From the NCBI GenBank assembly GCA_964383495.1, contig CAYLHG010000003.1:17771-81770 (forward strand): a stretch of 64,000 bases of DNA, given 5' to 3'. Under the pieces are notes generated by a model that did not search any database, was not told the origin of the DNA, and was given only the letters and a program-made list of their open reading frames with translations. Below, piece by piece: positions 4,042 through 62,693 of this stretch; positions within the stretch are counted from its first letter, which is position 1; every line of letters starts with the position of its first letter. The stretch is from an uncultured Gammaproteobacteria bacterium. Its GTDB lineage: Bacteria; Pseudomonadota; Gammaproteobacteria; JABCZS01. The translations under genes and the position numbers were made by a program.

Positions 4042-6210
4042 CTAGGAGGAGGGGGTTTGCCCAGGCACAGACGTGCTGTGAGCGGAAGAAAACGCATCAT
4101 CAGATGACGCTGTCAAAGTGCCAGTATCAGACGCATCCGGCTCAGACAGTGCTCCAGGTGTTGCGATAATCATATGAGCTGTTGCTGTAAAGCGGTAGTG
4201 ACGATACGCGGCATAAACACTCAACGCAAATAACACCACAAGAAATGCTAGCGCCCCTGTAGTAGCAGAAGATTTTAACAATGCTGATTGATCTTCATCT
4301 TGCAATAAATTCATTTCTGTAACAACATTTACCTCACCTAAATATAAACTTAAAGCTGCAGCAAACCCAACAACCAAAGAAATGAACATAATACTGTCTA
4401 AACTAAGATACCATGGCCGAGCCTCTATCCATTTTTCCGCCGTAATAGAAAAAACATGATCTAGCTGGGGTTTGTAATCAACCTCAGCTGCTGCATATAA
4501 TGCAATTATCTTGCTCCCCACGGCAGATTTGCACTCACCTGCAGCGCCTAACGCAATAGCTTGGCACAACAGCTCGTTATTATTACATTCTAAAATTTGC
4601 TTTCTCTCTTCTTTATTACATATTAAAAAAATATCTTCTATGATTTGCGGATCACCATCTGCGTCAACCACTGCTTCCAACGTTTTTTGCACAGTTTCCA
4701 CTTTTTGTTCTTTAGGGCAATCATTGATCAAACACATCACCATTTCATCGCGCCTTTCATCGATAGCTGCTTTCAATGGTTCGTATAATGAAACGCAAGA
4801 TTTATTTGCTACAAGGTAGATCGGATAAAATAATTTCATGGAAGCTATCTTATCTGTTTTTGCAATTTCGGTTAATTGTCTTTGCATTTTTTCGTAAAAA
4901 GTTTCTCGAGGCGGGTATTGCTTCTGATTATTTCTATGCAATTCTCTTAATAATTCGAAAAGCTCAGGCGTGATTGAAAAATTACCGTCTCTATAAGCAT
5001 TAGCGAGACCATCTTTAGATAACCCCACTAACGCATTAACTTCAGCATACACCAAAATAGCATCCATATGCTCCTGATCAAGCGCAGGGCGATCTTCCAT
5101 CGCAAGTAATTGAGTGCATACATTATACGGATCGGTGCTCACATTTTTTTGTAACGATTTCAACAATGTTTCATTGAATAATTTAGATCTATCCTGAGAA
5201 GGGCAAAACTTGAAAGCTATTCTGATCATAATAGATCTATCGCTCGCGGAGATTTCGTTCTTTAATATATAAGCTAAAATAGATTCAGCAGCTAATTTCT
5301 TATCAGGGTGAGATTCCAATGTCCGTTCCAACATTACATTCGAAATTTTTCTTCTTTCAAAAATAAATGTCAATATTTCCTGATAAAACTGTTTTCTTAC
5401 ATCCAATCCTGCATTGGAAGACAAAGCCATCAATAATTTTTCAAAAATTTGCTCGTAAATATTTTTTTCTTTATTTAGCGCGTCTTCATAACCTACTATC
5501 ATTTGTTTGATAAATAATTCCAATGTTTCTGGTGTGAAAGTGTCGCGTTTTTTAGATATCCAAAAATCTAAAATATCAATACTATGATATTGAATAGCAG
5601 AATCTATAGCTATTTTAAATAAATCATCATCTTGAATAAGTGTGTCCCTAGTCGACAGTGGCATGCGCGCCCATATATCTTCAAACACAGCTTTAACGTA
5701 TTTGCCTTCATAGCCACCACTACTGCCTTTAGGATACCGTGTTCTCCATATAAAAATCTTTATCAATTCAGTCTCAGGATTTCCCCTAAAGGTAAGCTGA
5801 GAAATGCCTTGCACAATCTTTGTATAGTTAGTGGTAAGCACCTCTGAATTAGGCACACTCTCTTTATTATTTTCATATTCGGCTAATAGTTCCTCAAGAC
5901 CGACTATTTGCGTTTCTTGCCGGATTTTATGAGGTAGAAGTTTATATAAATCAAACGCTATTTCCAGTTTAGAAGTATTGGCCTCAGAGGTAGGAAACAT
6001 CATTGTGCCCTCTGCGCTCAATGGTTCTTCATGCCAAGAGGGGGCTTTAGGACTTAGGGAAGAGGGAGAAGGAGGCGAGGATAAAGAAGTAACAGCTGCG
6101 GCTGTCAATGTAGGACGTAACGGTTTTTTTCCTTTATCAATAACAGTGGTACTAGGCTGCTCGTTTGCAGGAATCACTGCAATATCTTCATTATCATCCC
6201 CGTTACCCAT
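4042..6210 (-). CDS. Hypothetical 722-aa protein; Pro/Ser-rich N-terminus, C-terminal two-helix hydrophobic hairpin, S/T/D-rich tail
   Basis: Long ORF with GGAGG RBS. AT-rich relative to its neighbours. No recognisable catalytic motifs. Confidence 0.6.
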   Translation of the reverse strand: MGNGDDNEDIAVIPANEQPSTTVIDKGKKPLRPTLTAAAVTSLSSPPSPSSLSPKAPSWHEEPLSAEGTMMFPTSEANTSKLEIAFDLYKLLPHKIRQETQIVGLEELLAEYENNKESVPNSEVLTTNYTKIVQGISQLTFRGNPETELIKIFIWRTRYPKGSSGGYEGKYVKAVFEDIWARMPLSTRDTLIQDDDLFKIAIDSAIQYHSIDILDFWISKKRDTFTPETLELFIKQMIVGYEDALNKEKNIYEQIFEKLLMALSSNAGLDVRKQFYQEILTFIFERRKISNVMLERTLESHPDKKLAAESILAYILKNEISASDRSIMIRIAFKFCPSQDRSKLFNETLLKSLQKNVSTDPYNVCTQLLAMEDRPALDQEHMDAILVYAEVNALVGLSKDGLANAYRDGNFSITPELFELLRELHRNNQKQYPPRETFYEKMQRQLTEIAKTDKIASMKLFYPIYLVANKSCVSLYEPLKAAIDERRDEMVMCLINDCPKEQKVETVQKTLEAVVDADGDPQIIEDIFLICNKEERKQILECNNNELLCQAIALGAAGECKSAVGSKIIALYAAAEVDYKPQLDHVFSITAEKWIEARPWYLSLDSIMFISLVVGFAAALSLYLGEVNVVTEMNLLQDEDQSALLKSSATTGALAFLVVLFALSVYAAYRHYRFTATAHMIIATPGALSEPDASDTGTLTASSDDAFSSAHSTSVPGQTPSS

Positions 6211-6367: not shown

Positions 6368-7588
6368 TTGCGCTGGAGAGAACAATTCATGGCCTTTTTA
6401 AAAAAACCCCTTACGTTACTAATCATTGCATTAGGGTTAGGTGTTCTCACAGGGCTATACCCTCAGCCATTATTGATTAACCTTGCTAATACGGTAGCGA
6501 TGATTTTTGTTAATCTGCTTAAATTGATCAGTTTGCCTTTAATTTTTTTAGCAGTTGTAGCTACGCTCACCCAAATGCAAAACATGGCAGAGCTCAGATC
6601 ATTAGGAAGTAGGGTGCTGAAATATACATTGCTTACGACTATCACAGCAGCAACCATCGGGTTAGGTTTATTTTTATGGCTTAACCCTGTTCAAACGGGG
6701 CTTTCTTTAGATGTTGCGCCCCTATACACACCGGAAGGCACCTATTGGGATTATTTATTAAAAATCGTTCCCTCCAATCTCATCACACCTTTCAGCGAAG
6801 GCAATGTGATTGCTGTATTGATTTTAGCGCTTTTAGTAAGCTTCGCGATTTTACCTCTACCACCACACCAAAAAAACTTATTGAATGATTTGTTCACCAG
6901 TTTATTTGCAGCCATGCTTTCCATTGCTAAATTAATTTTAAAATTTATTCCCATTGCTATATGGGCGTTTATCGCACAGTTTATTGAGGAAATGAATACA
7001 AAGAAAGAGTTGCAACATATTGTTGTATTCTTAATTTGTGTAGTTTCTGCTAATTTAATTCAAGCACTCGTCGTGCTACCGTTGCTTTTAAAGTCAAAAG
7101 GTATTCCTCCCTTGAAAACCTTCAAAGCAATGTTCCCTGCATTAAACATCGCATTTTGGTCAAAATCTTCTGCAGCAACATTGCCTATCACACTACAATG
7201 TGCAAAAGAACGTTTAGGAATTTCCGAAAAAACAGCTGGGTTTTCCATTCCGATCTGCACAACCATTAATATGAATGGTTGTGCAGCATTCATTGTCATC
7301 ACGGTTTTATTTGTGTCCATGAGTAACGGCATGCATTTTTCCGTTCCAGAGTTGATCGCATGGATATTCATTGCAACATTAACTGCGGTTGGTAACGCCG
7401 GCGTTCCGATGGGATGCTACTTTTTATCGATGGCTTTATTAACGAGTATGAATGTACCGTTAGATCTAATGTTTGTGATTTTGCCTTTTTACGTATTCCT
7501 CGATATGTTGGAAACATCCATCAATGTGTGGTCTGATGCGTGCGTCACGGCAGTGGTGGATAAAGAGGAAAACAGACATTCACAATAA
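6368..7588 (+). CDS. Dicarboxylate/amino acid:cation symporter (DAACS/GltP-SstT family)
   Basis: Multi-TM protein with SSAATLP and NMNGCA motifs, corresponding to the SSSAALP and NMDGTA family signatures. True start may be the Met at 6389. Confidence 0.75.
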   Translation: MRWREQFMAFLKKPLTLLIIALGLGVLTGLYPQPLLINLANTVAMIFVNLLKLISLPLIFLAVVATLTQMQNMAELRSLGSRVLKYTLLTTITAATIGLGLFLWLNPVQTGLSLDVAPLYTPEGTYWDYLLKIVPSNLITPFSEGNVIAVLILALLVSFAILPLPPHQKNLLNDLFTSLFAAMLSIAKLILKFIPIAIWAFIAQFIEEMNTKKELQHIVVFLICVVSANLIQALVVLPLLLKSKGIPPLKTFKAMFPALNIAFWSKSSAATLPITLQCAKERLGISEKTAGFSIPICTTINMNGCAAFIVITVLFVSMSNGMHFSVPELIAWIFIATLTAVGNAGVPMGCYFLSMALLTSMNVPLDLMFVILPFYVFLDMLETSINVWSDACVTAVVDKEENRHSQ

Positions 7589-7625
7589 CATGCAGCCGCT
7601 CTATTTATTAGGGTTTTTGTACTAA

Positions 7626-9902
7626 TCACTCACCCAATGGCTCAGCATGCCCACACGTCTTAATCGGACATACTTTTTCTTTCCCTTTGCGCTTGGTTTC
7701 TTTTTTTGTCATCATCAAGAAACCACATTTAGGACAAGGTTCATCCAAAGGTTCATTCCAAACAGCAAATTTACAGTCAGGATAACGGCTACACGAATAA
7801 AATATTTTTCCGTAACGCGATTTGCGCGACACCATATTTCCTTGGGAGCATTCGGGGCAACGCACCCCCGTATCAGCCGGTTTTTCTAACGGCTCAATGT
7901 GCTTGCAATCAGGATACCCCGTACATCCAATAAATTTACCAAAACGTCCATGACGAATTTGTAATTTTTTGCTGCAATCCGGACAGTCCCTATCTAAAAT
8001 TTCTGGTTGTGATGTTTCTTCTCCATCCATGCTGCGCGTGTAATCGCAATCAGGATAGGACACGCACCCAATAAACCGTCCGCGTCGACCTAAACGAATA
8101 GATAATTCTTTTCCACATTTAGGGCATTTTTCATCTAATTTTTCTTGCGTCACATCACTACGCTTCACATTTACTTCTGTATCATCTACTAACGTTTTAA
8201 ACGGTTGCCAGAAATTTTCTAACAAAGGCACCCATTGCGCTTCGCCGCGTGATACAGCATCTAATTGATCTTCCAAATGCGCTGTAAAATCATAATCGAC
8301 ATAATTTGTAAAATACTCTGTCAAAAATTTGTTGACGACTTTACCTACATCGGTAGGAATAAAACGTTTTTTATCCATTTCAACATATTCACGCGCTTGA
8401 AGTGTATGAATAATACTTGCATACGTAGAAGGGCGGCCAATACCGTGCTCCTCTAATGCTTTCACAAGGCTTGCTTCCGTATACGCAGGCGGAGGTTCTG
8501 TGAAATGTTGAATCGGCTCAATGCTTTTTAAAGAAACTATTTGTCCTTCGTGAAACTCAGGCAACATTTTTTCATCATCTTCGCCCGGTTTTTGATCATC
8601 CACACCTTCTTGATACACAGAAATAAAACCCGGATCAACAATTGTTGAACCCGTTGCACGAAATACATGCTGCTCATCTGCTGCTAAATCAACACCCACT
8701 GTATTAATGGTCGCATGAATCATTTGGCATGCAACAGCTCGCTTCCAAATTAATTGATACAGTTTAAATTGATCGGCAGATAAATGTGTCTTAATAGCTT
8801 CCGGCACATTTTCTACGTGCGTAGGGCGAATAGCTTCATGCGCTTCTTGTGCATTTTTTGATTTTGATTTATACACGCGCGGTTCATCGGGTAAATTTTT
8901 CTTTCCGTAGCGTGATTCAATAAATGCACGAATTTCTGCTACCGCTTCAGGTGCTAAATGCGTCGCATCAGTACGCATATACGTAATCAAACCTTCTACA
9001 CCATTTCCAACATCAACACCTTCATATAATTGTTGCGCAGTGCGCATGGTGCGTTGTGCTGTAAAGCCTAATTTCCGTGCTGCCTCTTGTTGCAATGTGG
9101 ATGTGATGAACGGCGCAGCGGGGTTTCTTTTACGTTGTTTTTTCTCTATATTTGTAACAGTTAATTTCCCTTGCGCTAATTTTTCTAGCTTTTGTTGCGC
9201 TTTTAATGCAGTTGCTTCATCAGTAATAGTAAATTGCTCAAACTTTTTTCCATCAAACAAAGTTAATCTGGCATCTACCTCTTGTCCATCTGGATGACAA
9301 TGCGCTTCAATACTCCAAAATTCTTGTGGCACGAAAGCATCAATCAATGCTTGTCGTTCAACGATCATTCGCAAAGCAGGGCTTTGCACACGTCCGGCCG
9401 ATAAACCGCGTCGAATTTTTTTCCATAACAATGGGGATAAATTAAAACCTACTAAATAATCTAACGCACGACGTGCTTGTTGCGAATGCACTAAATCCAT
9501 GGATAATTCGCGCGGGTGTGCAATGGCATCTAATACTGCATTTTTGGTAATTTGGTTGAACACGATACGATGTACGGCTTTACCTTTCAATGCATTATGC
9601 TCTTTTGCTACTTCATAAAGATGCCAAGAAATAGCTTCCCCTTCGCGGTCTGGGTCAGTGGCCAGTAGCAATTCATCTACATCTTTCAACGCTTTTAAAA
9701 AAGTGTCGACGTGCTTTTTATTTTTTTCGATTAATTCATAACGCATGGCAAAATCATGTTGCGGATCAACCGCGCCTTCTTTGGCTACTAAGTCACGAAT
9801 ATGGCCATAAGAAGCGATGACCTTGTAATCCTTCTTGCCCAGATATTTTTCCAAGGTTTTTGTTTTAGCTGGCGATTCAACGACAACGAGACGTTTAGTC
9901 AT
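7626..9902 (-). CDS. topA: DNA topoisomerase I
   Basis: Toprim N-terminus (VVVESPAKTKT), active-site region and three C-terminal C4 zinc ribbons (CPKCG, CPDCS, CPECS). Confidence 0.95.
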   Translation of the reverse strand: MTKRLVVVESPAKTKTLEKYLGKKDYKVIASYGHIRDLVAKEGAVDPQHDFAMRYELIEKNKKHVDTFLKALKDVDELLLATDPDREGEAISWHLYEVAKEHNALKGKAVHRIVFNQITKNAVLDAIAHPRELSMDLVHSQQARRALDYLVGFNLSPLLWKKIRRGLSAGRVQSPALRMIVERQALIDAFVPQEFWSIEAHCHPDGQEVDARLTLFDGKKFEQFTITDEATALKAQQKLEKLAQGKLTVTNIEKKQRKRNPAAPFITSTLQQEAARKLGFTAQRTMRTAQQLYEGVDVGNGVEGLITYMRTDATHLAPEAVAEIRAFIESRYGKKNLPDEPRVYKSKSKNAQEAHEAIRPTHVENVPEAIKTHLSADQFKLYQLIWKRAVACQMIHATINTVGVDLAADEQHVFRATGSTIVDPGFISVYQEGVDDQKPGEDDEKMLPEFHEGQIVSLKSIEPIQHFTEPPPAYTEASLVKALEEHGIGRPSTYASIIHTLQAREYVEMDKKRFIPTDVGKVVNKFLTEYFTNYVDYDFTAHLEDQLDAVSRGEAQWVPLLENFWQPFKTLVDDTEVNVKRSDVTQEKLDEKCPKCGKELSIRLGRRGRFIGCVSYPDCDYTRSMDGEETSQPEILDRDCPDCSKKLQIRHGRFGKFIGCTGYPDCKHIEPLEKPADTGVRCPECSQGNMVSRKSRYGKIFYSCSRYPDCKFAVWNEPLDEPCPKCGFLMMTKKETKRKGKEKVCPIKTCGHAEPLGE

Positions 9903-10513: not shown

Positions 10514-11637
10514 TTTGCGCTCCTCCACGCCCGAGTGTACCCACCCGGCATTGTCTGTACTAAACCACGTAACTCCAGCTCTGTTAAACGACAGGCCACT
10601 TCCTGTGCAGGCAGATTTAGCCGGCTAATTAATTCATCTACCCCCACGACTCCCATCTCCAAGATCGTCACCATTTCTCGATCTTGCTTATCTAAGTGTG
10701 AACAACTTATTCGATTTTGGCCAGTCGTTTTCCCATTATTGTTTTTATTTTGCTGCAATAACCCAAGTTCCAATAAAATATCTTCAGGTGTTTCAACCAA
10801 GGTTGCTCCTTGTTTGATTAAATAATGGCATCCTTGCGTCTGGGGGTTTCTCACTGCACCGGGAATCGCAAATACTTCTCGATTCTGCTCAACGGCATGC
10901 TTAGCCGTTGTCAATGTGCCACTGCGCAATGCAGCCTCCACGACTAGCACACCTTGCGATAATCCGCTGATAATGCGGTTACGCTGAGGGAATAGAGGCG
11001 GGGTCGGCTGTGTGCCTAAGGGAAACTCAGTGATCACGGCTCCTTGAGAAGCTACCATACTGGCTGCTAAGCGACGATGGCGCGCCGGATATATTTCATC
11101 TATTCCAGTAGCCATCACCCCTATTGTTGGAGCGCTCACTTCTAAAGCACCCTGATGCGCACTAGCATCCACACCCACCGCCAAGCCACTGGTGATCGTC
11201 AACCCTGCTTGCCCTAATGCTCGAGCAAAATCTTCTGCCAATGCAGCGCCCAACGGTGAAGGCTTCCGACTACCCACAATACCAATCTGCAAAGATTGCA
11301 ACGCAGCTACATTGCCTTGCACGTAAAGCCCTAAGGGCGGCATGGGAATTTCTTTTAACAAAGCAGGGTACTCAGGCGACCACACCGGCACAAAATGATG
11401 TTGGGGGGAAGCGGCCAGCCACGCCTCTAAACGCGCACAAAATGAAAGAGAAGGACGAGACAAAGCAGCCATGCGATCTGGCGTTAAACCCAGCGCGGGA
11501 CCTAATTCAGGCCCTATGTACCACTCGCCGACCTTTGCTTCTTCAAAATAATCAATAATAACCCGCGCACGGGTGCGTGCAATATCACTTATCCATGCCC
11601 ACTGAACGAGGGTCTTATGATTCTGATTGTATTCCAT
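10510..11637 (-). CDS. dprA: DNA processing protein DprA/Smf
   Basis: Rossmann-like DprA core (IVGSR, GVDASAH, VIxExPLG). Conserved position divergent from def-fmt. Confidence 0.9.
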   Translation of the reverse strand: MEYNQNHKTLVQWAWISDIARTRARVIIDYFEEAKVGEWYIGPELGPALGLTPDRMAALSRPSLSFCARLEAWLAASPQHHFVPVWSPEYPALLKEIPMPPLGLYVQGNVAALQSLQIGIVGSRKPSPLGAALAEDFARALGQAGLTITSGLAVGVDASAHQGALEVSAPTIGVMATGIDEIYPARHRRLAASMVASQGAVITEFPLGTQPTPPLFPQRNRIISGLSQGVLVVEAALRSGTLTTAKHAVEQNREVFAIPGAVRNPQTQGCHYLIKQGATLVETPEDILLELGLLQQNKNNNGKTTGQNRISCSHLDKQDREMVTILEMGVVGVDELISRLNLPAQEVACRLTELELRGLVQTMPGGYTRAWRSAK

Positions 11638-51905: not shown

Positions 51906-54383
<2,478 letters not shown>

Positions 54384-54786
54384 CTACCATTTTTTGCCTC
54401 AAAAGGGGAAAAGTGATTACGAAAAGAGGTGAATATCAACACTTAACTAACTTATGCTCTAGAGGGCAAGGGATACATATGCAAGGCATTTTAACGACAC
54501 TTCGACAAAGGGAGTATGGAAAAAATCAAGCTTTAAAGAAGTCTTGAAGCAAAGGAAATTATTGATACGTTTTTAAGTAAACATGAGCCCCTTTTTTTCG
54601 ATCATTACTCAATCGGGCGAATCTTAACAACAAATTGAAGCAAATGACTATAAAGGGCGCGTAAAAGTCCTTTCTCAAGCATTGACAGAGCGAATAGCAT
54701 TCATAGAGCCTTCCATGCCGCCCCTACACTACAAGAAATGATACCCAGCATACCGCAAAGATCAAGAGGACCGAAGTAAGCAAGGA

Positions 54787-54802
54787 TGTTCCACGTGGAA
54801 CA
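54787..54802. promoter_or_regulatory. parS-like palindrome TGTTCCACGTGGAACA (perfect 16-mer)
   Basis: 15/16 match to the Bacillus-type parS TGTTCCACGTGAAACA. Symmetric. Confidence 0.6.
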
Positions 54803-54944
54803 ATGAAAGAAAAGCAGAAAGCTAGGGTAGATCGCACAAAAAAACCCCCGATTCCCTGCGCGAATCTGCCCCGCCCGGATCAAATCTGGGCCAAGCTAAA
54901 AAGGAACAGCACATGCTTAACTATAAAAAGCATTTTTTAGAAAA

Positions 54945-55130
54945 TTGAGAAACAATCAAACTGCTGCAGAAAAATTACTGTGGCGTTTTTTAGGAAAAAA
55001 ACAAAGCTTAAACACAAGTTTCACCCGTCCAAAGCCCATAGGGCCTTTTATTGTGGATTTTTATGCAAAATCTGCAAATTTAATCATTGAATTTGATGGC
55101 GGCCAACATTACGATAAATGTGAGCGCTAA
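54945..55130 (+). pseudogene. Truncated DUF559 (Vsr-like endonuclease-domain) gene remnant
   Basis: 61 aa: AAEKLLWRFL...FTRPKPIGPFIVDFYAKSANLIIEFDGGQHYD matches the DUF559 core, then stops. Confidence 0.55.
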
Positions 55131-55298
55131 TAGATAAAAATAGAGATTCGTATTTTGCGCTTTTAGTTTATCCGTATTGCGATTTAATAATTTGAAGGTT
55201 TTGTTTAGCACAGAGCCGGGGTAGCGGATGATAAGATAGCAGGCAAGCCATATTCGCGTAAGGATGGGAGTTTATTGAGCTTTAGTGAGGCGGCGAAT

Positions 55299-55314
55299 GT
55301 TCCACGTGGAACCA
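55299..55314. promoter_or_regulatory. parS-like palindrome TGTTCCACGTGGAACc
   Basis: One terminal mismatch to the local consensus. Confidence 0.55.
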
Positions 55315-55568
55315 TGAGGAAAATCGATGGGCTGGAGAGCAGATCATGCAAGAAACCTCTCGATTCGTGGAGTTTATTCCCCCGCGAAAGCGGAAACCGA
55401 CCACCCCGTCAGCATCAAGTCCAGAGCAATGCCTAGATCAAATCCGGGCCAAGCTTTTAGAGGGTAGGTGAGCAGCACAGCTGCGAAGCGGGATTCTCAT
55501 GTCACAGAGGACAAGAAAAGAGATCTAATGTCCCGTAAAGATCGATGGGGCCAAGGTAAGGATCGCAT

Positions 55569-55584
55569 GTTCCACGTGGAACTA
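55569..55584. promoter_or_regulatory. parS-like palindrome TGTTCCACGTGGAACt
   Basis: One terminal mismatch. Confidence 0.55.
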
Positions 55585-55759
55585 CAAGGAGAGCAGTGAA
55601 GCAAGTATCTTGTGCAAGAAAACCTCGTCTCATGCTCCGCGCCCGCCTGCCTCTTAAAAGGGGGCTATTAGCAATGTTATTGGTGAAACACTCCCGATTC
55701 GCGGAGTTTATTCCATGCGCAAGCACAATATGCGGGGGTTTTCTTCCTGCGTAATCATC

Positions 55760-56836
55760 TTAAACAACCGTAACCGCTCCATGTTCCACGTGGAACACCG
55801 CACGCTCACGCTCACCACCAAGATCTATTTTCTCTACGCTCGTTAAACAAATTTGGGCATCTAATATAGACAAACGCTCATTTAATAAAGCTCGCGCACC
55901 TTTATCTAGCTCAGAGGGCAGGTCATCTATCAATAATGTTGGACGTTTTCCTGTCTGCTCTATCATCCAGGATACTTGCGCCAATTGTAAGCCTGTTACA
56001 AATGTTTTTTGTTGCCCAGTAGACAACACTTGCGCAGCAGGTTTTTCGTTTACTTTGATTTTCAAATCAGCACGATGTGGGCCCGCGTGTGTGAACCCTA
56101 AAAACATATCCCGCTCAGAAGAAGCCAGCAAAGCCTCCTCTAGGCTTGTCCCTTTTGTCCAGCCCGGCTCATAGAGTAGTCTCAAATCAGAGACACCAGG
56201 CAGCCCTTCTAACGCAATTAAAAAAGAAGGTAAGCAGACATCTAAAATGGAGCAACGTATTTCATGTAACTTTTGGCCTGCTGCAGCTAATAAACTTGTC
56301 CATAAAGACAAATCAGAACGCGCACCTCCAGAAGCACGCAATGCTGCATTGCGTTGTTTCAATAAACGATGGTACTCTCGCCAAACCGCATGGAAAGAAG
56401 GTTCCACGTGGAACATTAACCAATCCAGCCATCGACGCCGCTCTTCAGGAGGATCAGCAAGCAGTTGGTAACCCTCCAAGTTGAGAATTTGAACCGGAAG
56501 CAGTTGTGCAAGTGCAGCAATAGAACCAGCAGGTTCATCATTAATGAGGTAACTATATTTCTCATGTGCATTTTTAATGCACTTCAGTGTGCAAACCAGA
56601 CCATCGTCCAATAGCACCCGAGCACCGATTTGACACGTTTTTTTTCCATGAGAGATCGCTGTAGACAGCTGGGAAGCACGAAATGATTTGCCCGTACCTA
56701 ATATATAGATGCTTTCAAGAATAGAGCTTTTTCCAGCCCCGTTGTCACCGTAAAAATAATTAAGCCCAGGGGAGAGGGTGATGCACTCAGAAGATAAATT
56801 GCGTATATGGTTGCACTGTAAGACTTCAAGCGTCAT
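55760..56836 (-). CDS. recF: DNA replication and repair protein RecF
   Basis: Walker A GDNGAGKSS, signature and Walker B regions. C-terminus VFHVEHG resembles E. coli MFTVEKG. Confidence 0.95.
   Translation of the reverse strand: MTLEVLQCNHIRNLSSECITLSPGLNYFYGDNGAGKSSILESIYILGTGKSFRASQLSTAISHGKKTCQIGARVLLDDGLVCTLKCIKNAHEKYSYLINDEPAGSIAALAQLLPVQILNLEGYQLLADPPEERRRWLDWLMFHVEPSFHAVWREYHRLLKQRNAALRASGGARSDLSLWTSLLAAAGQKLHEIRCSILDVCLPSFLIALEGLPGVSDLRLLYEPGWTKGTSLEEALLASSERDMFLGFTHAGPHRADLKIKVNEKPAAQVLSTGQQKTFVTGLQLAQVSWMIEQTGKRPTLLIDDLPSELDKGARALLNERLSILDAQICLTSVEKIDLGGERERAVFHVEHGAVTVV
55782..55797. promoter_or_regulatory. parS-like palindrome TGTTCCACGTGGAACA (perfect), inside the last codons of recF (encodes VFHVEH)
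   Basis: Seen in sequence. Confidence 0.6.
56400..56415. promoter_or_regulatory. parS-like palindrome gGTTCCACGTGGAACA inside recF coding (encodes MFHVEP)
   Basis: Seen in sequence. Confidence 0.55.
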
Positions 56837-56916
56837 TTATAAAACCCCCGACCCGCGGAGCTTCCCCGCATCATCCGCGTTCCACGCAAAAAATCCATTA
56901 GCAAGCAATCAAGCGC

Positions 56917-58029
56917 TCACAGTCTCAACGGCATTACCACATGAAAATGAGTCATGCCTGGCAAAGGCTCCCCTGAAATCACTGCAGAACAACTGGGATC
57001 AATCAGCTTTAGACACACGTTTCCTGGCGGCAAGGTGTTCAACACGTCCAATAAATACCCTGCGTTAAAACCAATTTCGAAAGGATTTCCTTGATAAGGC
57101 AAATGTATCGCCGCCTCGGCTTCTTCTTGTTCGGGGTTGTTTGCAACAATTCGAAGCAAATCGCCGCTTAATAGCAGACGAACGCCGCGATTCTTCTCAT
57201 TTGATAATGTTGCGGCTCTCATTAACCCTTGTTTTAAAGTGTCCCGATCTAACCCAAGCTCCATGGTGGCAGGAGGGGGAAGGACGCGCTTATAATCTGG
57301 GAAGCGTCCCTCTATTAGTTTTGTGATAAATTCGTGTCGATCTGACGTGATTTTGAGGGTATTGTCGTCGATTTGCACCCCAACAAGATCCATTGTATCA
57401 TTTAGTAATGATAATAATTCTGTTACCGCCTTGCGAGGGACAATCACATGGACGGGAGGGTCTGCAGGAAAAAGAGGGGTAGCGTATTCATTGACCGCAA
57501 GTCTGTGCCCATCTGTGGCGATCATCCTTAAAATTCCTCGATCTGTCTCGAACAGCATCCCATTTAGATAGTAACGGGAATCGTTATTTGCCATGGCAAA
57601 TCGTGTGGCCATCATCATCTGGCGCAATATGCTCTGAGGAAACTTTGCAGAGATTTTCGCTGAATTTCTTTGAATAGCAGGGAAATCCGCGGCAGGGAGG
57701 GTTGCTAGGACAAAGCGCGCACGACCGCTACGCAAAATGAGCCTTTCTCCTTCTAATTTGCAATGAATATCGTCGTTCTCCGCCAAACTTCTGCAAATAT
57801 CTAAAATTTTTCTTGCGGGAGCAGTGACCTCTCCAGAGGTGAATTGTCCTTCAAGCGCATCCTTTACCATTAGCTCAACTTCAAGATCGGAGGCGTTCAA
57901 CGAAATTTGTGAATTTTCAACACAGATCAACACGTTTGACAGTATCGGCATATGTTGTTTTTTTTCAGCCACCCCCGACACCTGCTGAACCAACTTAAGC
58001 AACTTCTCGCATTTTATTGTAAATTCCAT
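56917..58029 (-). CDS. dnaN: DNA polymerase III beta sliding clamp
   Basis: Three-domain beta clamp with MEFTIKCEKLLK N-terminus. Confidence 0.97.
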   Translation of the reverse strand: MEFTIKCEKLLKLVQQVSGVAEKKQHMPILSNVLICVENSQISLNASDLEVELMVKDALEGQFTSGEVTAPARKILDICRSLAENDDIHCKLEGERLILRSGRARFVLATLPAADFPAIQRNSAKISAKFPQSILRQMMMATRFAMANNDSRYYLNGMLFETDRGILRMIATDGHRLAVNEYATPLFPADPPVHVIVPRKAVTELLSLLNDTMDLVGVQIDDNTLKITSDRHEFITKLIEGRFPDYKRVLPPPATMELGLDRDTLKQGLMRAATLSNEKNRGVRLLLSGDLLRIVANNPEQEEAEAAIHLPYQGNPFEIGFNAGYLLDVLNTLPPGNVCLKLIDPSCSAVISGEPLPGMTHFHVVMPLRL

Positions 58030-58062: not shown

Positions 58063-59427
58063 TTAAGAAGACAAGATTCGTACCAAATCTGTCCAATCTT
58101 CCTGAATTTGCCCATCAGATTCCAACATTGCTTTAATAGTACGGCAGGCATGCAATACGGTAGTATGGTCGCGACCACCAAATGCATCACCCACTTCTGG
58201 CAAGCTATGATTTGTTAACTCTTTTGCCAGCGCCATCGCCAACTGTCGAGGGCGAGCCACAGAGCGAGAACGACGCTTCGATAGCAAATCAGCCACTTTA
58301 ATGTTGAAATACTCAGCCACTGTTTTTTGGATATTTTCAATCGTAACAAGCTTGTCTTGCAAAGCTAACAAGTCCTTCAAAGATTCTTTCACAAATTCGA
58401 TAGTAATTTCTTTCCCTGTAAAACGCGCATTCGCCATGACTCGTTTTAAGGCGCCTTCTAATTCACGCACGTTGGCACGCACCCGTTTTGCAATAAAGAA
58501 GGCGACATCGTAAGATAACTCAAGCCCCATTGCTTGGGATTTGCTCATTAAAATAGCTACTCGCGTTTCCAACTCTGGCGGCTCTACAGCCACCGTCAAC
58601 CCCCAGCCAAAGCGTGATTTTAAACGCTCTTCTAATCCTGTGATTTCTTTAGGGTAACGATCACTGGCAATCACTAATTGTTGGCGCCCCTCAAGTAACG
58701 CATTCAATGTATGAAATAACTCTTCTTGTGAGCGCTCTTTACCAGCAAAAAATTGAATATCATCCACCATCAAGACGTTGCGCGAACGATAAAAATCTTT
58801 GAACTCCCCGATTTGGTTATTTTGTAAGGCTTTCACCATGTCCGCCACAAAGCGCTCTGAGTGCCTATACAATATTTTTGCCTGAGGATCACGTTCTAAT
58901 ATCATATTACCAATAGCGTGCATCAAATGCGTTTTCCCAAGGCCTACGCCTCCATAGATGAAAAGCGGGTTGTACACTGTGCCCGGGTTTTCAGCAACCT
59001 GTATTGCCGCGGCCCGCCCCAGCTGGTTAGATTTGCCTTCTACGAAATTTTCAAACGTAAATTCTTTGTTAAGATTATCTGCAGATGAGAACGTCATGGC
59101 ATTCGTTTTAGTAGGAACAACCTTTGTTGTAATAAAAGAAGCCGCAGGCTCTGCAGAAATCGCGGCCATTCCATTCGATTTTCTTCCCATTTTCAACACA
59201 ACATCAGGAGGGTTCGTCGGACAAAACTGTTGCATCCACGCTTTTATCATAACGAGATAGTTATCTTCCACGTACCCGCAAATAAAACGGTTAGGCGCAA
59301 ACAGACAAAGCCCTTCTTCGAGCATTTCTGCTTGCAACGGAAAAATCCACGTATGATAATCAGTTGGTGTAAGCTTGTCTTCTAAGAACTGTAAGCACTG
59401 ATGCCACAGAGACAGTGTGCCAGACAT
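58063..59427 (-). CDS. dnaA: Chromosomal replication initiator DnaA
   Basis: AAA+ Walker [11 protein letters not shown], sensor motifs, C-terminal DnaA-box-binding HTH (HTTVLHA). Confidence 0.97.
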
Positions 59428-59511
59428 TGGCCCCTCCCATGCCCAAAACGATATTCAGTATACCTTGTTTTGAAGTACTGTTGTTGATCTCTACGCACCA
59501 AGAATGCCATA

Positions 59512-60687
59512 ATGTCTACTTTTTTGGAGCCCTCACTCATGAAGCCTGCCTCTTATTTCACCACGGGACTTGGTTTGTTTGCGATGTTTTTTGGAGCAGG
59601 CAACGTCGTGTTCCCATTATTTGTGGGTATGAAAGCAGGCACTGGGTTAATCCCTGCCATTACCGGGCTCTTACTCACAGCAGTTGCTTTACCCATGGCA
59701 GCGGTACTTGCAATGGTAGAGTATCGCGGTGAACAAAAAGCATATTTTGCGCGTGCAGGGAAATGGGGCGGCGCACTTTTATTATTACTCTGCCTGTTTT
59801 TATTAGGGCCTTTTTTGGTTGTGCCTAGAACAGTATCTGTTGCACACTCTGCCATTTCTCAAACAATTATTCCTGTTTCACCGGAAGTATTCGGGTTAGG
59901 GTATTGCATTTTGATTGCCATTTTATCGCTCAACACGAATACCATGTTGCGGCTAATGGGTCAATTTTTCACGCCATTAATGCTGATTTTATTAGGATGG
60001 ATTATTGCAGCAGGCATTTTCACTCCCGCAACAAATACGATCGCATTAGACCACGCCGAAGGATTTTCCTTTGGATTAAAAGAGGGATATTTCACACTCG
60101 ATGCCATTGCAGCATTGGTGTTTGGACAATTTATTTATGTACAATTACGGCATCAAAGTAAAGATTTATCGCACACACATTTTAAAAAGCACGTGATACA
60201 AGCATCTTGCGTTGCAGGCTTATTATTAAGCTTGGTATATATTGGTCTTGCGTACATCAGCCACAAACAAGCAGACGCGAGCATGCTGTCATTAGATTTA
60301 AAACAAGCGTTATTAATTTTGTTGAGCGCAAAAATGTTGCCGGAAAAATTTATTGGTGTTGCAGGTATTATTATTGCTTCGGCGTGCATTACCACAGCAT
60401 GTGCATTGTCTAAAATTTTCGCGGATTATTTGCATCATTTTGTGAGGCATTACACGCGCAAAATCTCAGATACACATTGTTTATTATTTACCATTGCCAT
60501 TGCATACGGCATGAGCTTGCTAGGTTTTAACGAATTAATGGCGTATTTTTCACCTGTTATTATTGCATGTTATCCCGTTTTTATTTTGCTCACAGTGCAT
60601 GCGTTTGTGAAAGACAAAGTGAATACAAGATGGATGCCTTTTGGCGTTATCATTTGCTTAGCGCTTGGTGTGGCAGGATTAATATAA
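59512..60687 (+). CDS. Branched-chain amino acid transport system II carrier-like permease (LIVCS/BrnQ family)
   Basis: N-terminal FGAGNVVFPLFVGMKAG matches the BrnQ FGAGNxxFPPxxG signature. 12 TM. Confidence 0.65.
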   Translation: MSTFLEPSLMKPASYFTTGLGLFAMFFGAGNVVFPLFVGMKAGTGLIPAITGLLLTAVALPMAAVLAMVEYRGEQKAYFARAGKWGGALLLLLCLFLLGPFLVVPRTVSVAHSAISQTIIPVSPEVFGLGYCILIAILSLNTNTMLRLMGQFFTPLMLILLGWIIAAGIFTPATNTIALDHAEGFSFGLKEGYFTLDAIAALVFGQFIYVQLRHQSKDLSHTHFKKHVIQASCVAGLLLSLVYIGLAYISHKQADASMLSLDLKQALLILLSAKMLPEKFIGVAGIIIASACITTACALSKIFADYLHHFVRHYTRKISDTHCLLFTIAIAYGMSLLGFNELMAYFSPVIIACYPVFILLTVHAFVKDKVNTRWMPFGVIICLALGVAGLI

Positions 60688-60716
60688 AGCATAAGCGTTT
60701 AGGCAATGGCATCAAC

Positions 60717-61796
60717 TTATGGAATGGGGCACCCTGCCCGTTTCCCTTGAAACAACGATACCTCTTTCATAAGCTGCTCAAAATGAGAAGAGGTATCTTT
60801 GATGCAAATGAAATTAAGATCTTGTTGTTCCGATAGCAGGCCACTTAACCCCGACAGGCTTCTAGTAAATGAGTTTACTTGGTCTTGGGGGATACACAAA
60901 TCTTTTAAAGATGAAAACAGCGCAGTTTGCTCATCTTTAGGAAGCACCACAAATAATAAATCCTCGTGCATAAAAACTTTATTCACATGAAAATCTTTTA
61001 CATTTAGCATTTCTTTTAATGTGTGTTCAATCAGCAAAGAAGAAGGCGTACGATACGAACCACCCACTTTATGAGTGCTTCCTTCGCTGCTTATCTTAAA
61101 TGCAACAACCTCATTCGACAGCTCCTTACAATTGAACTGATGGAAATTAGGAGTCATGCGACCATGCGGTGAAATAAAACCTGCAGTGTGACAAAGATCG
61201 CCTAATTTTTCTATAACCTTAATTCGATTATCTCCAGAAATCTTAATGCCTAACGTTAACACAGGCGTCTCTGTCCCTGCACCAGATATATCCGGCGCAA
61301 AAGAAAATGAACATCCACTATCCTTTAGAACAGTTGCACAATACTCTCGTAATGTTAGCAGCATGAGGTTAGTTTCAAAAAACAGATCATCAAACCTTGC
61401 CGAGTCAAAGTGCCTTTTAATGGCTTCAGCGCTCACCAACATTTCTGCTGCATTTCGCGCAACGGTTGTTGAGGCGCTGGGGACAGGCGCATGCAGCTCA
61501 CTCATTTTACAACTGCTAAACAACACTTGAGCCAAATCATGCCCCAAGAAGTATGGCTCATTACCGGCGCTCCCTACCTTTTGCAAGAAGGTTGCATGAA
61601 GCTCTGACAAGCCTCCCCGGTAAACCTCGGGTAGAAAAGGCTCCGACGTAGAAGGCCACTGAATTTGGACCATACAATGGTCTTTTTGTTCGTTTTCGAT
61701 AATCAAGACCTTGACGGAATTTTTTAATGATTTAACTTGATTAATCTTATGAATAAACTCATTGATTTCTTTCTTTAGCTCTATCAACGTTGGCAT
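60717..61796 (-). CDS. Hypothetical 360-aa protein adjacent to oriC
   Basis: Start set at MPTLIELKK (ATG 61796 with GGGGGG RBS). No recognisable motifs. Confidence 0.5.
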   Translation of the reverse strand: MPTLIELKKEINEFIHKINQVKSLKNSVKVLIIENEQKDHCMVQIQWPSTSEPFLPEVYRGGLSELHATFLQKVGSAGNEPYFLGHDLAQVLFSSCKMSELHAPVPSASTTVARNAAEMLVSAEAIKRHFDSARFDDLFFETNLMLLTLREYCATVLKDSGCSFSFAPDISGAGTETPVLTLGIKISGDNRIKVIEKLGDLCHTAGFISPHGRMTPNFHQFNCKELSNEVVAFKISSEGSTHKVGGSYRTPSSLLIEHTLKEMLNVKDFHVNKVFMHEDLLFVVLPKDEQTALFSSLKDLCIPQDQVNSFTRSLSGLSGLLSEQQDLNFICIKDTSSHFEQLMKEVSLFQGKRAGCPIP

Positions 61797-61911
61797 ATTA
61801 CCCCCCTGAAAACAAACTAACCAATCTTTTGTGCATATTATCACAGCCCAGCTATAGCTTATTAAGCTTTTGAATAACTTAGCAAGTTGTTGTAAAGTAC
61901 CCTGTGTGGGC

Positions 61912-62394
61912 TGTGGATAACAACAGGTCACGCCTTGTTTATATCGAGATAAGTAGAGTTATCCACATCTTACCCCAATTAGCCCCCAAAAGAGTGATCG
62001 GTTTCTCCACAATTAAAACCGTTTTAATCTGTTGAAACATAACAAAAAAATAAACTTATCCACACAATATGCGATCCCTTATAGTAATAATATTTCTTTA
62101 TATACATATATAATATTATTGTAAATGAGCGCATACAACCCTTTTAGAACCCGAAGACATTGTCTAGCAAAAAATGGTCAGTCGAAAAATGAACGCAGTA
62201 TTTGTGTAGACAATCCATGGAACAAAATTGTTAAGTAACGAGTTATTAGATGTGCATAACCCGCCCATATTTTCCTGCCCAAGAAAACACCCACACTTAT
62301 CCACAAATGCCGATATGGCTACACCCCCTATTACCCACATCAAAGCATCGGCCTCAACTAATTAATATTAAAAGCATTAAATGGCTTATCCACA
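61912..62394. other. Putative oriC: DnaA-box cluster plus AT-rich unwinding element
   Basis: TGTGGATAA at 61912. TTATCCACA at 61959, 62056, 62297 and 62386. TTcTCCACA at 62003. AT-rich tract ~62085-62125 (tagtaataatatttctttatatacatatataatattattg). Confidence 0.7.
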
Positions 62395-62543
62395 GAAAAT
62401 GCGAAAGCTTATAAATATCATAAAGTTCTTCATATAAAATACTTAAATATATTAATCCCTGTGAAAAATCCTCAAAAAAGGCTAGCAAATCAGGAAAAGA
62501 TTCGTTAGAATGAGCACCTCAAGTTTTTAAACAGGTGTTACTC

Positions 62544-62693
62544 ATGAAAAGAACCTACCAACCTAAAAAGAAAAGACGGGCGAAAACCCATGGCTTTCGT
62601 GCACGCATGAAAACCAAAGGCGGCCGCAAGGTAATAGCTGCTCGCCGTGCTAAAGGACGTCATCGTTTGGCGCCCACCGCTTCTCGCGCGTAA
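62544..62693 (+). CDS. rpmH: 50S ribosomal protein L34
   Basis: [42 protein letters not shown]... Below the ORF-track size cutoff. Confidence 0.9.

Follow-up and report, generated by a model that had tools for sequence, protein, structure and literature searches.

The 64,000-nucleotide stretch of DNA from an uncultured gammaproteobacterium that was analysed here (the window) carries gyrB, recF and dnaN close to a putative replication origin. The gyrB-recF spacer extends from 54330 to 55759, and with 1,430 bp it is the longest among the 87 gammaproteobacterial recF-gyrB spacers measured, the next-longest having 798 bp and the majority less than 100 bp. The first-pass annotation of this DNA, which was made without database searches, had called the 1.4-kb spacer unusually long; the comparison with the closest relatives bears this out, their spacers being 74, 176, 426, ~660 and 740 bp in length (the best relatives found are 72% identical). 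Repeat units occupy approximately 54730-55780, while 54330-54730 comprises the gyrB promoter, its leader and further sequence. The promoter is of the extended -10 type (54381..54389, minus strand, reading TGGTAGAAT with an A-run ahead) and its motif is shared with the relatives: AAAARTGGTAnAAT is found ~60-70 nt 5' of the gyrB ATG in seven of the compared loci (L082, L085, L083, L087, L088, L064 and L077). It is the sole part of the spacer that is kept in the relatives, position 54330-54395 aligning with their gyrB leaders by blastn.

Five perfect copies of the 14-nt parS core GTTCCACGTGGAAC are present in the window, compared to 0.08 expected, and a search with the general parS consensus TGTTNCACGTGAAACA, a 16-bp palindrome, again returned five sites with 0-1 mismatch (0.27 expected). 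Three of them are located in the spacer, one per repeat unit: parS of unit 1 (54787..54802, TGTTCCACGTGGAACA, a perfect 16-bp palindrome), of unit 2 (55298..55313, TGTTCCACGTGGAACC) and of unit 3 (55568..55583, TGTTCCACGTGGAACT), and the 14-bp cores of all three are perfect. The parS-like palindromes noticed at first reading are hence confirmed, but two more sites inside recF had been overlooked. One lies in the 3' end of the gene (55782..55797), where the minus strand encodes ..VFHVEHG..., and is found at the same place in all the relatives and in the gammaproteobacterial loci; the other lies at approximately codon 141 (56400..56415), encodes WLMFHVEP, and is found at the same place in the relatives and in Pseudomonas loci. 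This recF pair sits at identical codons in every relative and in each of the 86 scanned loci, a universality inflated by ascertainment, as the loci were fetched by peptide patterns that included FHVE motifs. All five sites fall within 1.63 kb (54787-56415), and the successive parS-to-parS spacings from unit 1 to the recF 3' end are irregular (511, 270 and 214 bp).

The cluster is situated 5.5-7.2 kb from oriC (61912..62394), which lies upstream of rpmH and combines five perfect copies of the DnaA box (TTATCCACA) with an AT-rich stretch; seven perfect DnaA boxes occur in the window, compared to 0.63 expected, and five of the seven fall in this segment. Neither ParB nor ParA was found among the ten ORFs of the window that were scanned against Pfam. 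Judging from synteny with the relatives, parAB would be located beyond the right end of the window, past yidC, mnmE and mnmG. The cognate ParB binder for these parS sites is assumed.

The segments surrounding the three spacer sites are homologous to each other. With parS masked, their flanks display above-null likeness in the direct orientation alone, with gapped scores of 17, 13, 12 and 8 (the 99th percentile of the null being 9), and the local alignments of units 1 and 2 and of units 2 and 3 are better than those of 300 out of 300 shuffles, that of units 1 and 3 better than 296 out of 300. The upstream flank of unit 1 contains a 50-nt segment (D3; 54731..54780, plus strand) in common with the upstream flank of unit 3 (55511..55560, plus strand), which was recovered by the repeat search and by local and anchored alignments; the two copies are 70% identical (4 out of 300 shuffles as good; anchored gapped score 17 versus a null 99th percentile of 9). 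Outside the boxes described below, the flanks show ~57% identity per aligned column (MAFFT). No similarity was found between spacer sites in inverted orientation, nor between the flanks of the spacer sites and those of the two recF sites in either orientation. Since the flanks resemble each other in the direct orientation only, the units are best explained as old, strongly diverged duplicates. The claim of three diverged copies of a ~250-bp unit had been made subject to an alignment showing that the units are homologous, and in this respect it stands. Tandem Repeats Finder detected no array of ~250 bp or of any other long period; the homology is revealed by the anchored and local alignments. 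A derivation of the units from the 3' end of recF or from its internal parS region was rejected on the basis of flanks that are dissimilar in both orientations. Likewise rejected was the idea that any unit is orthologous to the lone parS in the spacer of L082, L087 or L088, only parS and the gyrB promoter being alignable.

Two short boxes stand out within the units, all on the plus strand. Box1 is well preserved in unit 2 (55352..55380, GAAACCTCTCGATTCGTGGAGTTTATTCC; repeat family D7, profile match) and in unit 3 (55685..55714, GAAACACTCCCGATTCGCGGAGTTTATTCC; repeat family D7), and box2 in unit 1 (54873..54897, with 19 of 20 positions equal to the unit 2 copy; repeat families D5 and I12) and in unit 2 (55431..55455; repeat family D5, profile match), while unit 3 has no box2. 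A degenerate box1 was assigned weakly to unit 1 (54840..54870, AAAAACCCCCGATTC/CCTGCGCGAATC; repeat family D4 and MAFFT), seemingly lacking 13 nt that units 2 and 3 have, and was not recovered by the box1 profile. The two conserved boxes announced for every unit are, within the window, confined to the spacer, but no unit has both of them intact. Beyond the spacer, further copies turned up neither elsewhere in the 64 kb of the window nor in the related loci (1.55 Mb) nor among viral contigs. The box2 copy of unit 1 holds a 19-bp imperfect dyad (GCCCGGAT-CAA-ATCTGGGC, 54873-54891) that folds as an 8-bp hairpin; the half-sites read GCCYRGAT, and GCC..GAT is kept in four out of four half-sites as read by eye. 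An extension of the unit homology beyond box2 into the start of the DUF559 gene described below was not significant (score 4 versus a null mean of 3.3).

The best reading of the boxes is that they are patches of the duplicated segment which were kept better or underwent conversion more recently. They might instead be functional cis-elements, for example sites for accessory proteins that shape the partition complex or regulate the neighbouring genes, so that the unit would be a module of parS plus accessory site. The identity of the boxes (19/20 for box2 and ~27/30 for box1) exceeds the ~57% of the aligned flanks, both are restricted to this locus within the window, the GCC..GAT dyad halves are constant, and there is a precedent in P. 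aeruginosa, where ParB on intergenic parS affects adjoining promoters. On the other hand, each box has two good copies that are nowhere intact together in one unit, neither is found in the loci of the relatives, so that any function would be lineage-specific, no protein emerged as a candidate binder, and the same pattern is given by short gene-conversion patches or by nested duplications of different age. We therefore consider a cis-element function unlikely, though worth some weight. A more elaborate version, to which we give only an outside chance, is a composite centromere module joining parS to accessory sites particular to this lineage, namely box1 and the dyad of box2, for a putative factor; selection for more ParB loading beside gyrB and recF would have favoured its amplification. 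If it were true, the present locus, together with the extra parS sites that recur in long recF-gyrB spacers of other Gammaproteobacteria, would form a natural series for studying the causes of parS copy number and clustering. One point weighing against the main reading of the locus, a centromere enlarged by duplication, is that blocks of 90-95% identity next to flanks of 50-60% are unexpected under uniform neutral decay; the boxes may have a function that this reading leaves out.

Units 1 and 2 are separated by the remains of a gene of the DUF559 family (Vsr-like endonuclease; PF04480), located at 54913..55205 on the plus strand with a clean match at 54930-55127. The match to the Pfam profile is well above the cut-off (E 6.5e-16, 58.6 bits versus 20.6), yet the gene is not intact: only profile positions 5-70 of 109 are clean, the ORF has 61 amino acids and is not full-length, and its reading frame is broken by stops at 55128, 55131 and beyond. 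This agrees with the truncated DUF559 ORF that the first-pass annotation had placed between copies 1 and 2. The gene probably started at the ATG at 54913, with a frameshift in a T-run. Its homologues are restricted to four weak matches of at most 53% identity on short contigs. A second, older DUF559 remnant at 54420-54665 was considered and rejected, its colinear alignment being equalled by 17 out of 300 shuffles and Pfam giving no match.

The presence of this gene inside the array raises the question whether the units are mobile DNA, either a small non-autonomous element of the MITE or REP type carrying parS, or the remnants of a mobile DUF559 cassette that was inserted repeatedly. The recF-gyrB spacer does take insertions in this clade, as locus L087 has MITE-like long inverted repeats between two parS sites. 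However, the units display neither terminal inverted repeats nor target duplications, the only long inverted repeats in 54300-57000 being the parS palindromes themselves, and they adjoin each other, all in the same orientation. Copies of the boxes are absent from the other 62 kb of the window, from the 1.55 Mb of related loci and from viral contigs, and a search of plasmid and phage collections with the whole spacer came back empty. The JGI metagenomes contain one exact box1 match, on an unrelated high-GC contig, which is about what chance would give for 19.5 specified bases by our estimate. The MITE-like alternative put forward earlier consequently finds no footing in the structure of the units or in the sequences searched, and we hold a mobile origin to be very unlikely.

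Small RNAs or small proteins encoded by the units are, in our judgement, highly improbable. Plus-strand ORFs of 41-45 amino acids read across the boxes (SRFVEFIP, DQIRAKL), with box1 and box2 of unit 2 inside one ORF of 41 amino acids and both boxes of unit 1 spanned by one of 45, but box1 is not in the same frame in units 1 and 2, nor do the ORFs agree in where they start or how long they are. Run exhaustively against 1.84 billion representatives, phmmer gave one marginal match (E 2.4e-4, in five stretches), which was taken as repetitive, and Pfam gave only DUF559. As to RNA, the fold z-scores of the units range from -3.0 to +1.1; the plus strand of unit 1 folds better than its shuffles (z = -3.0), the other units no better than theirs. 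The units share no common fold, and their copies are too few for covariation; Rfam has no match at the gathering threshold or at E<=5, and the promoter and terminator scan of the spacer units stayed at or below shuffle expectation. The suggestion of a repeated noncoding RNA is accordingly not upheld. A role of box1 as an intrinsic terminator on the minus strand was also rejected, since only the copy in the recF-dnaN spacer passes a simple scan and the total equals shuffle expectation.

The spacer is thus probably the intergenic half of a chromosomal ParB-loading centromere that was enlarged by local segmental duplication. The two further parS sites inside recF would make the spacer one half of a five-site centromere and not a stand-alone oddity. 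The recF sites, which are contained in codons for FHVE motifs, would be the ancient ones, common to Pseudomonas and many Gammaproteobacteria, and the three spacer sites would have arisen in this lineage when an intergenic segment with parS was duplicated locally in direct orientation; a DUF559 gene would have become lodged between units 1 and 2 and later died. In line with the established ParABS model, each parS would serve as a loading site for ParB dimers, which would form closed, CTP-dependent clamps and slide along into gyrB, recF and dnaN, and the resulting partition complex would be moved by ParA and would recruit condensin. More sites, tightly clustered, may provide a higher local rate of ParB loading. 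The flanks are at ~57% identity while every 14-bp core is identical, from which we infer that the extra sites were kept by selection, and the perfect cores of the three intergenic sites point to a maintained function. The proposal of a local amplification of parS followed by decay fits as far as the amplification is concerned, and also for the flanks and the DUF559 gene, but decay has spared all three cores. The units are carried by one genome only, and the order and age of the duplications are therefore not datable.

Extra parS sites are not unique to this genome. The relatives, with 66-72% RecF identity, have three or four parS sites around recF, the third being located in the dnaN-recF or the recF-gyrB spacer. 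The 86 loci together (1.55 Mb) contain 202 parS sites, mostly the two conserved ones in recF, and fifteen other loci with spacers longer than 150 bp hold nine extra sites in 5.4 kb. Extra parS sites thus recur in expanded recF-gyrB spacers of other, unrelated Gammaproteobacteria, which identifies this spacer as a site where centromere growth is tolerated.

Read as a centromere, the locus is a larger example of a kind already known from bacteria. Five parS sites in 1.63 kb look, to our knowledge, denser than most described chromosomal clusters. The closest parallel is the parS1-parS4 cluster of P. aeruginosa, which has the same 16-bp palindrome family, the same two recF positions (parS1 and parS2 are located within recF; PMC5521831) and the same dnaA-dnaN-recF-gyrB context within a few kb of oriC, and in which a single site is enough for segregation (PMC5521831). 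The recF pair of this genome shares its codons with the Pseudomonas loci (L015-L036), while none of the three spacer sites corresponds to a validated one. P. aeruginosa, too, has additional intergenic sites, parS3 and parS4, a little further downstream, whereas here the extra sites are packed in the recF-gyrB spacer, which in Pseudomonas loci is absent or a few bp long; here, moreover, the predicted spacer sites are visibly paralogous direct repeats. Chromosomal parS sites commonly lie near the origin and differ in number between species (PMC7333895), and multi-site clusters of one to ~20 or more, such as that of Streptomyces coelicolor (PMC7333895), likewise consist of near-consensus sites near oriC in lineage-variable number. 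In contrast to these clusters, the duplication origin is here still legible in the flanks.

The centromere sopC of the F plasmid was enlarged by tandem amplification and consists of twelve 43-bp repeats, each with a SopB-binding inverted repeat. As in sopC, a unit holding one binding palindrome was amplified; unlike in sopC, the units measure 214-511 bp, are strongly diverged, irregular, interrupted by a pseudogene and chromosomal, and carry canonical chromosomal parS. A recent review raises the questions why species differ in their number of parS sites and what makes the sites cluster (PMC7333895), and the present locus offers an unusually legible route to more sites, with the recF pair and three duplicated intergenic sites whose cores are perfect amid decay. 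For annotation, parS sites and a pseudogene are the proper labels for this long 'empty' spacer, which should not be combed for genes or small RNAs.

The spacer on the other side of recF may preserve a trace of a further site. Between recF and dnaN (56840..56886, plus strand; repeat families D4 and D6), positions 56840-56865 form a stretch weakly resembling box1, and 56876-56886 hold a decayed half-site of parS (GCGTTCCACGC). The partial box reported there earlier is marginal: targeted local alignments were equalled by 2-8 out of 300 shuffles, and the box1 profile did not recover the stretch at E<=10. The sequence itself is backed by an independent Logan contig (L001; 1443 of 1444 positions identical), and two relatives (L083 and L085) have an intact parS where the half-site stands here.

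The genes gyrB (51906-54329), recF (55760-56836), dnaN (56917-58029) and dnaA (58063-59427) are all encoded on the minus strand of the window, and gyrB and recF are separated by a spacer of 1,430 bp (54330-55759). The first-pass annotation rightly called this spacer unusually long: in 86 gammaproteobacterial loci the recF-gyrB spacer is mostly below 100 bp and never exceeds 798 bp. Perfect DnaA boxes (TTATCCACA) occur seven times in the whole window versus 0.63 expected, and the region upstream of rpmH that combines five of them with an AT-rich stretch (61912-62394) is oriC. The 14-nt parS core GTTCCACGTGGAAC is found five times in the 64-kb window versus 0.08 expected, and all five copies are confined to 54788-56414. 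Three are located in the spacer (54787, 55298 and 55568, in repeat units U1, U2 and U3, respectively), one at the 3' end of recF (55782, codons VFHVEHG) and one inside recF (56400, codons WLMFHVEP), while upstream of recF the window contains only a decayed half-site, GCGTTCCACGC. From its sites and position, the spacer appears to be the intergenic half of a chromosomal centromere that comprises five parS and lies 5.5-7.2 kb away from oriC. Based on synteny, parB should be located past the window's right end.

The interval of approximately 3 kb between dnaA and oriC/rpmH (59428-62544) contains a branched-chain amino-acid transporter gene (59512-60687, plus strand), assigned by synteny with relatives, which have it at the equivalent place, and a 404-aa ORF (60717-61931, minus strand) having no Pfam match at 1e-5. 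In L083, a relative's 1.58-Mb MAG contig, an AAA_14/DUF4143 ATPase gene adjoins the transporter gene on the side facing rpmH, and dnaA (7431-8823) is called as two overlapping ORFs, one of 129 aa containing DnaA_N and one of 336 aa containing the AAA+ and C-terminal domains, owing to a frameshift or else to an error of assembly.

The flanks of the parS sites were compared over 60 nt on either side, in both orientations. Scores above the null were obtained only among the three spacer sites and only in direct orientation (17, 13, 12 and 8, versus a null 99th percentile of 9); no other site had flanks resembling those of the recF pair. The alignments support the homology of the units and the proposed tandem amplification, and the spacer parS are best read as paralogues that arose when a segment carrying parS was duplicated locally in direct orientation. 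The description of three diverged units with two conserved boxes each holds in outline and is overstated in detail, since the units share single segments pairwise. In local alignments with parS masked, U1 and U2 share only box2 (19/20), U2 and U3 only box1 (approximately 27/30), and U1 and U3 a 50-nt segment upstream of parS with 70% identity, equalled in 4 of 300 shuffles; the claimed box1 copy of U1 is degenerate. Tandem Repeats Finder detected no long-period array, and mean column identity in a MAFFT alignment of the units is 57%. In that alignment the 16-nt block ATGTTCCACGTGGAAC is invariant in all three units, versus 42 of the 327 columns elsewhere, from which we infer that the spacer parS are maintained, presumably through ParB binding; by our own arithmetic, three intact blocks would be vanishingly unlikely without selection. 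The decay that was proposed to follow amplification has affected the flanks and the DUF559 gene, and not the parS cores.

The boxes are 90-95% identical beside flanks at 50-60%, which exceeds the prediction of uniform decay. With two good copies of each in a single genome, they may represent short patches of conversion or nested duplications of more recent date, or possibly sites bound by a protein specific to this lineage, box2 being a dyad of 19 bp. A partial box1 reported from the recF-dnaN spacer is marginal: neither this copy nor that of U1 is recovered by a profile based on the two good ones. Protein-coding, small repeated noncoding RNA and MITE-like mobile element readings were all tested and found no support. 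Both boxes are absent from the rest of the window and from every relative's locus. The sole exact box1 20-mer in JGI metagenomes is on an unrelated, high-GC contig (L089, 551-599), approximately 12 nt ahead of an opposite-strand gene's start codon; this gene is taken from its N-terminus to be dapF-like. In the window, too, the weak box1-like copy adjoins a start codon, that of recF, probably by coincidence.

When all six frames of the spacer were searched with Pfam, only DUF559 was matched (E 6.5e-16; approximately 54930-55127, profile positions 5-70 of 109), which confirms the truncated Vsr-like gene noted between U1 and U2. Its frame runs on across several stop codons and it is therefore a pseudogene. 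The otherwise unassigned left part of the spacer (54420-54665) is colinear with this pseudogene (17 of 300 shuffles score equally well; one block matches at 24/27, 54517-54543 against 54993-55019) and may be an older, wholly decayed second copy, in which Pfam finds nothing.

The nearest relatives, uncultured gammaproteobacterial MAGs with RecF identities of 66-72%, share the dnaA-dnaN-recF-gyrB order with the window, whose dnaN-recF spacer is confirmed by a 1.4-kb Logan contig (1443/1444). The sole 100% match to the window's RecF is a stand-alone protein record. Their recF-gyrB spacers measure 74, 176, 426, approximately 660 and 740 bp. All keep both recF parS and have one or two further sites each, directly upstream of recF in L083 and L085, and in the recF-gyrB spacer, approximately 120 bp ahead of the ATG of gyrB, in L082, L087 and L088. 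Of the spacer sequence, window and relatives have in common only the leader of gyrB and its extended -10 promoter. This promoter, AAAARTGGTAnAAT (window 54372-54389), is strongly conserved in distant Gammaproteobacteria and was found upstream of gyrB in L064, L077, L082, L083, L085, L087 and L088; having its own promoter at any spacer length, gyrB is therefore independent of recF read-through in these lineages. The spacer of L087 (RecF 72%) carries a MITE-like or hairpin structure (4078-4530) between perfect parS at 4048 and 4585, with inverted repeats of 51 nt (88% complementarity) and 101 nt (81%) enclosing approximately 144 bp of AT-rich DNA. In the dnaN-recF spacer of L085 (9845-9925), three tandem repeats of approximately 22 bp (GCCGCATTGCTGCGCCCGAAAC) directly precede a perfect parS.

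The 86 loci (1.55 Mb) contain 202 parS, the majority being the two conserved recF sites, whose universality is partly built in, since the peptide patterns used to collect the loci contain the FHVE motifs encoded across these sites. The 15 other loci with spacers above 150 bp hold nine extra parS in 5.4 kb. Independently of this sampling, parS1 and parS2 of P. aeruginosa are located inside recF, and for segregation it is both necessary and sufficient that at least one site of the parS1-4 cluster be bound (PMC5521831). Origin-proximal parS clusters with parS inside recF are a known kind, of which the present locus is an unusually dense and visibly duplicated case. Following the established ParABS model (PMC7333895), ParB would load at these sites and spread along neighbouring DNA, ParA would segregate the complex, and ParB would recruit SMC. 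The main value of the locus is that it clearly illustrates how parS can increase in number, and that it corrects the annotation of a seemingly empty 1.4-kb spacer. In L064, an unrelated gammaproteobacterial MAG, five or six tandem units of approximately 23 bp (GGTATCAGTGGACAGGCACTCTC; 11070-11225) directly follow recF, and are themselves followed by two extra parS with weakly similar upstream flanks.
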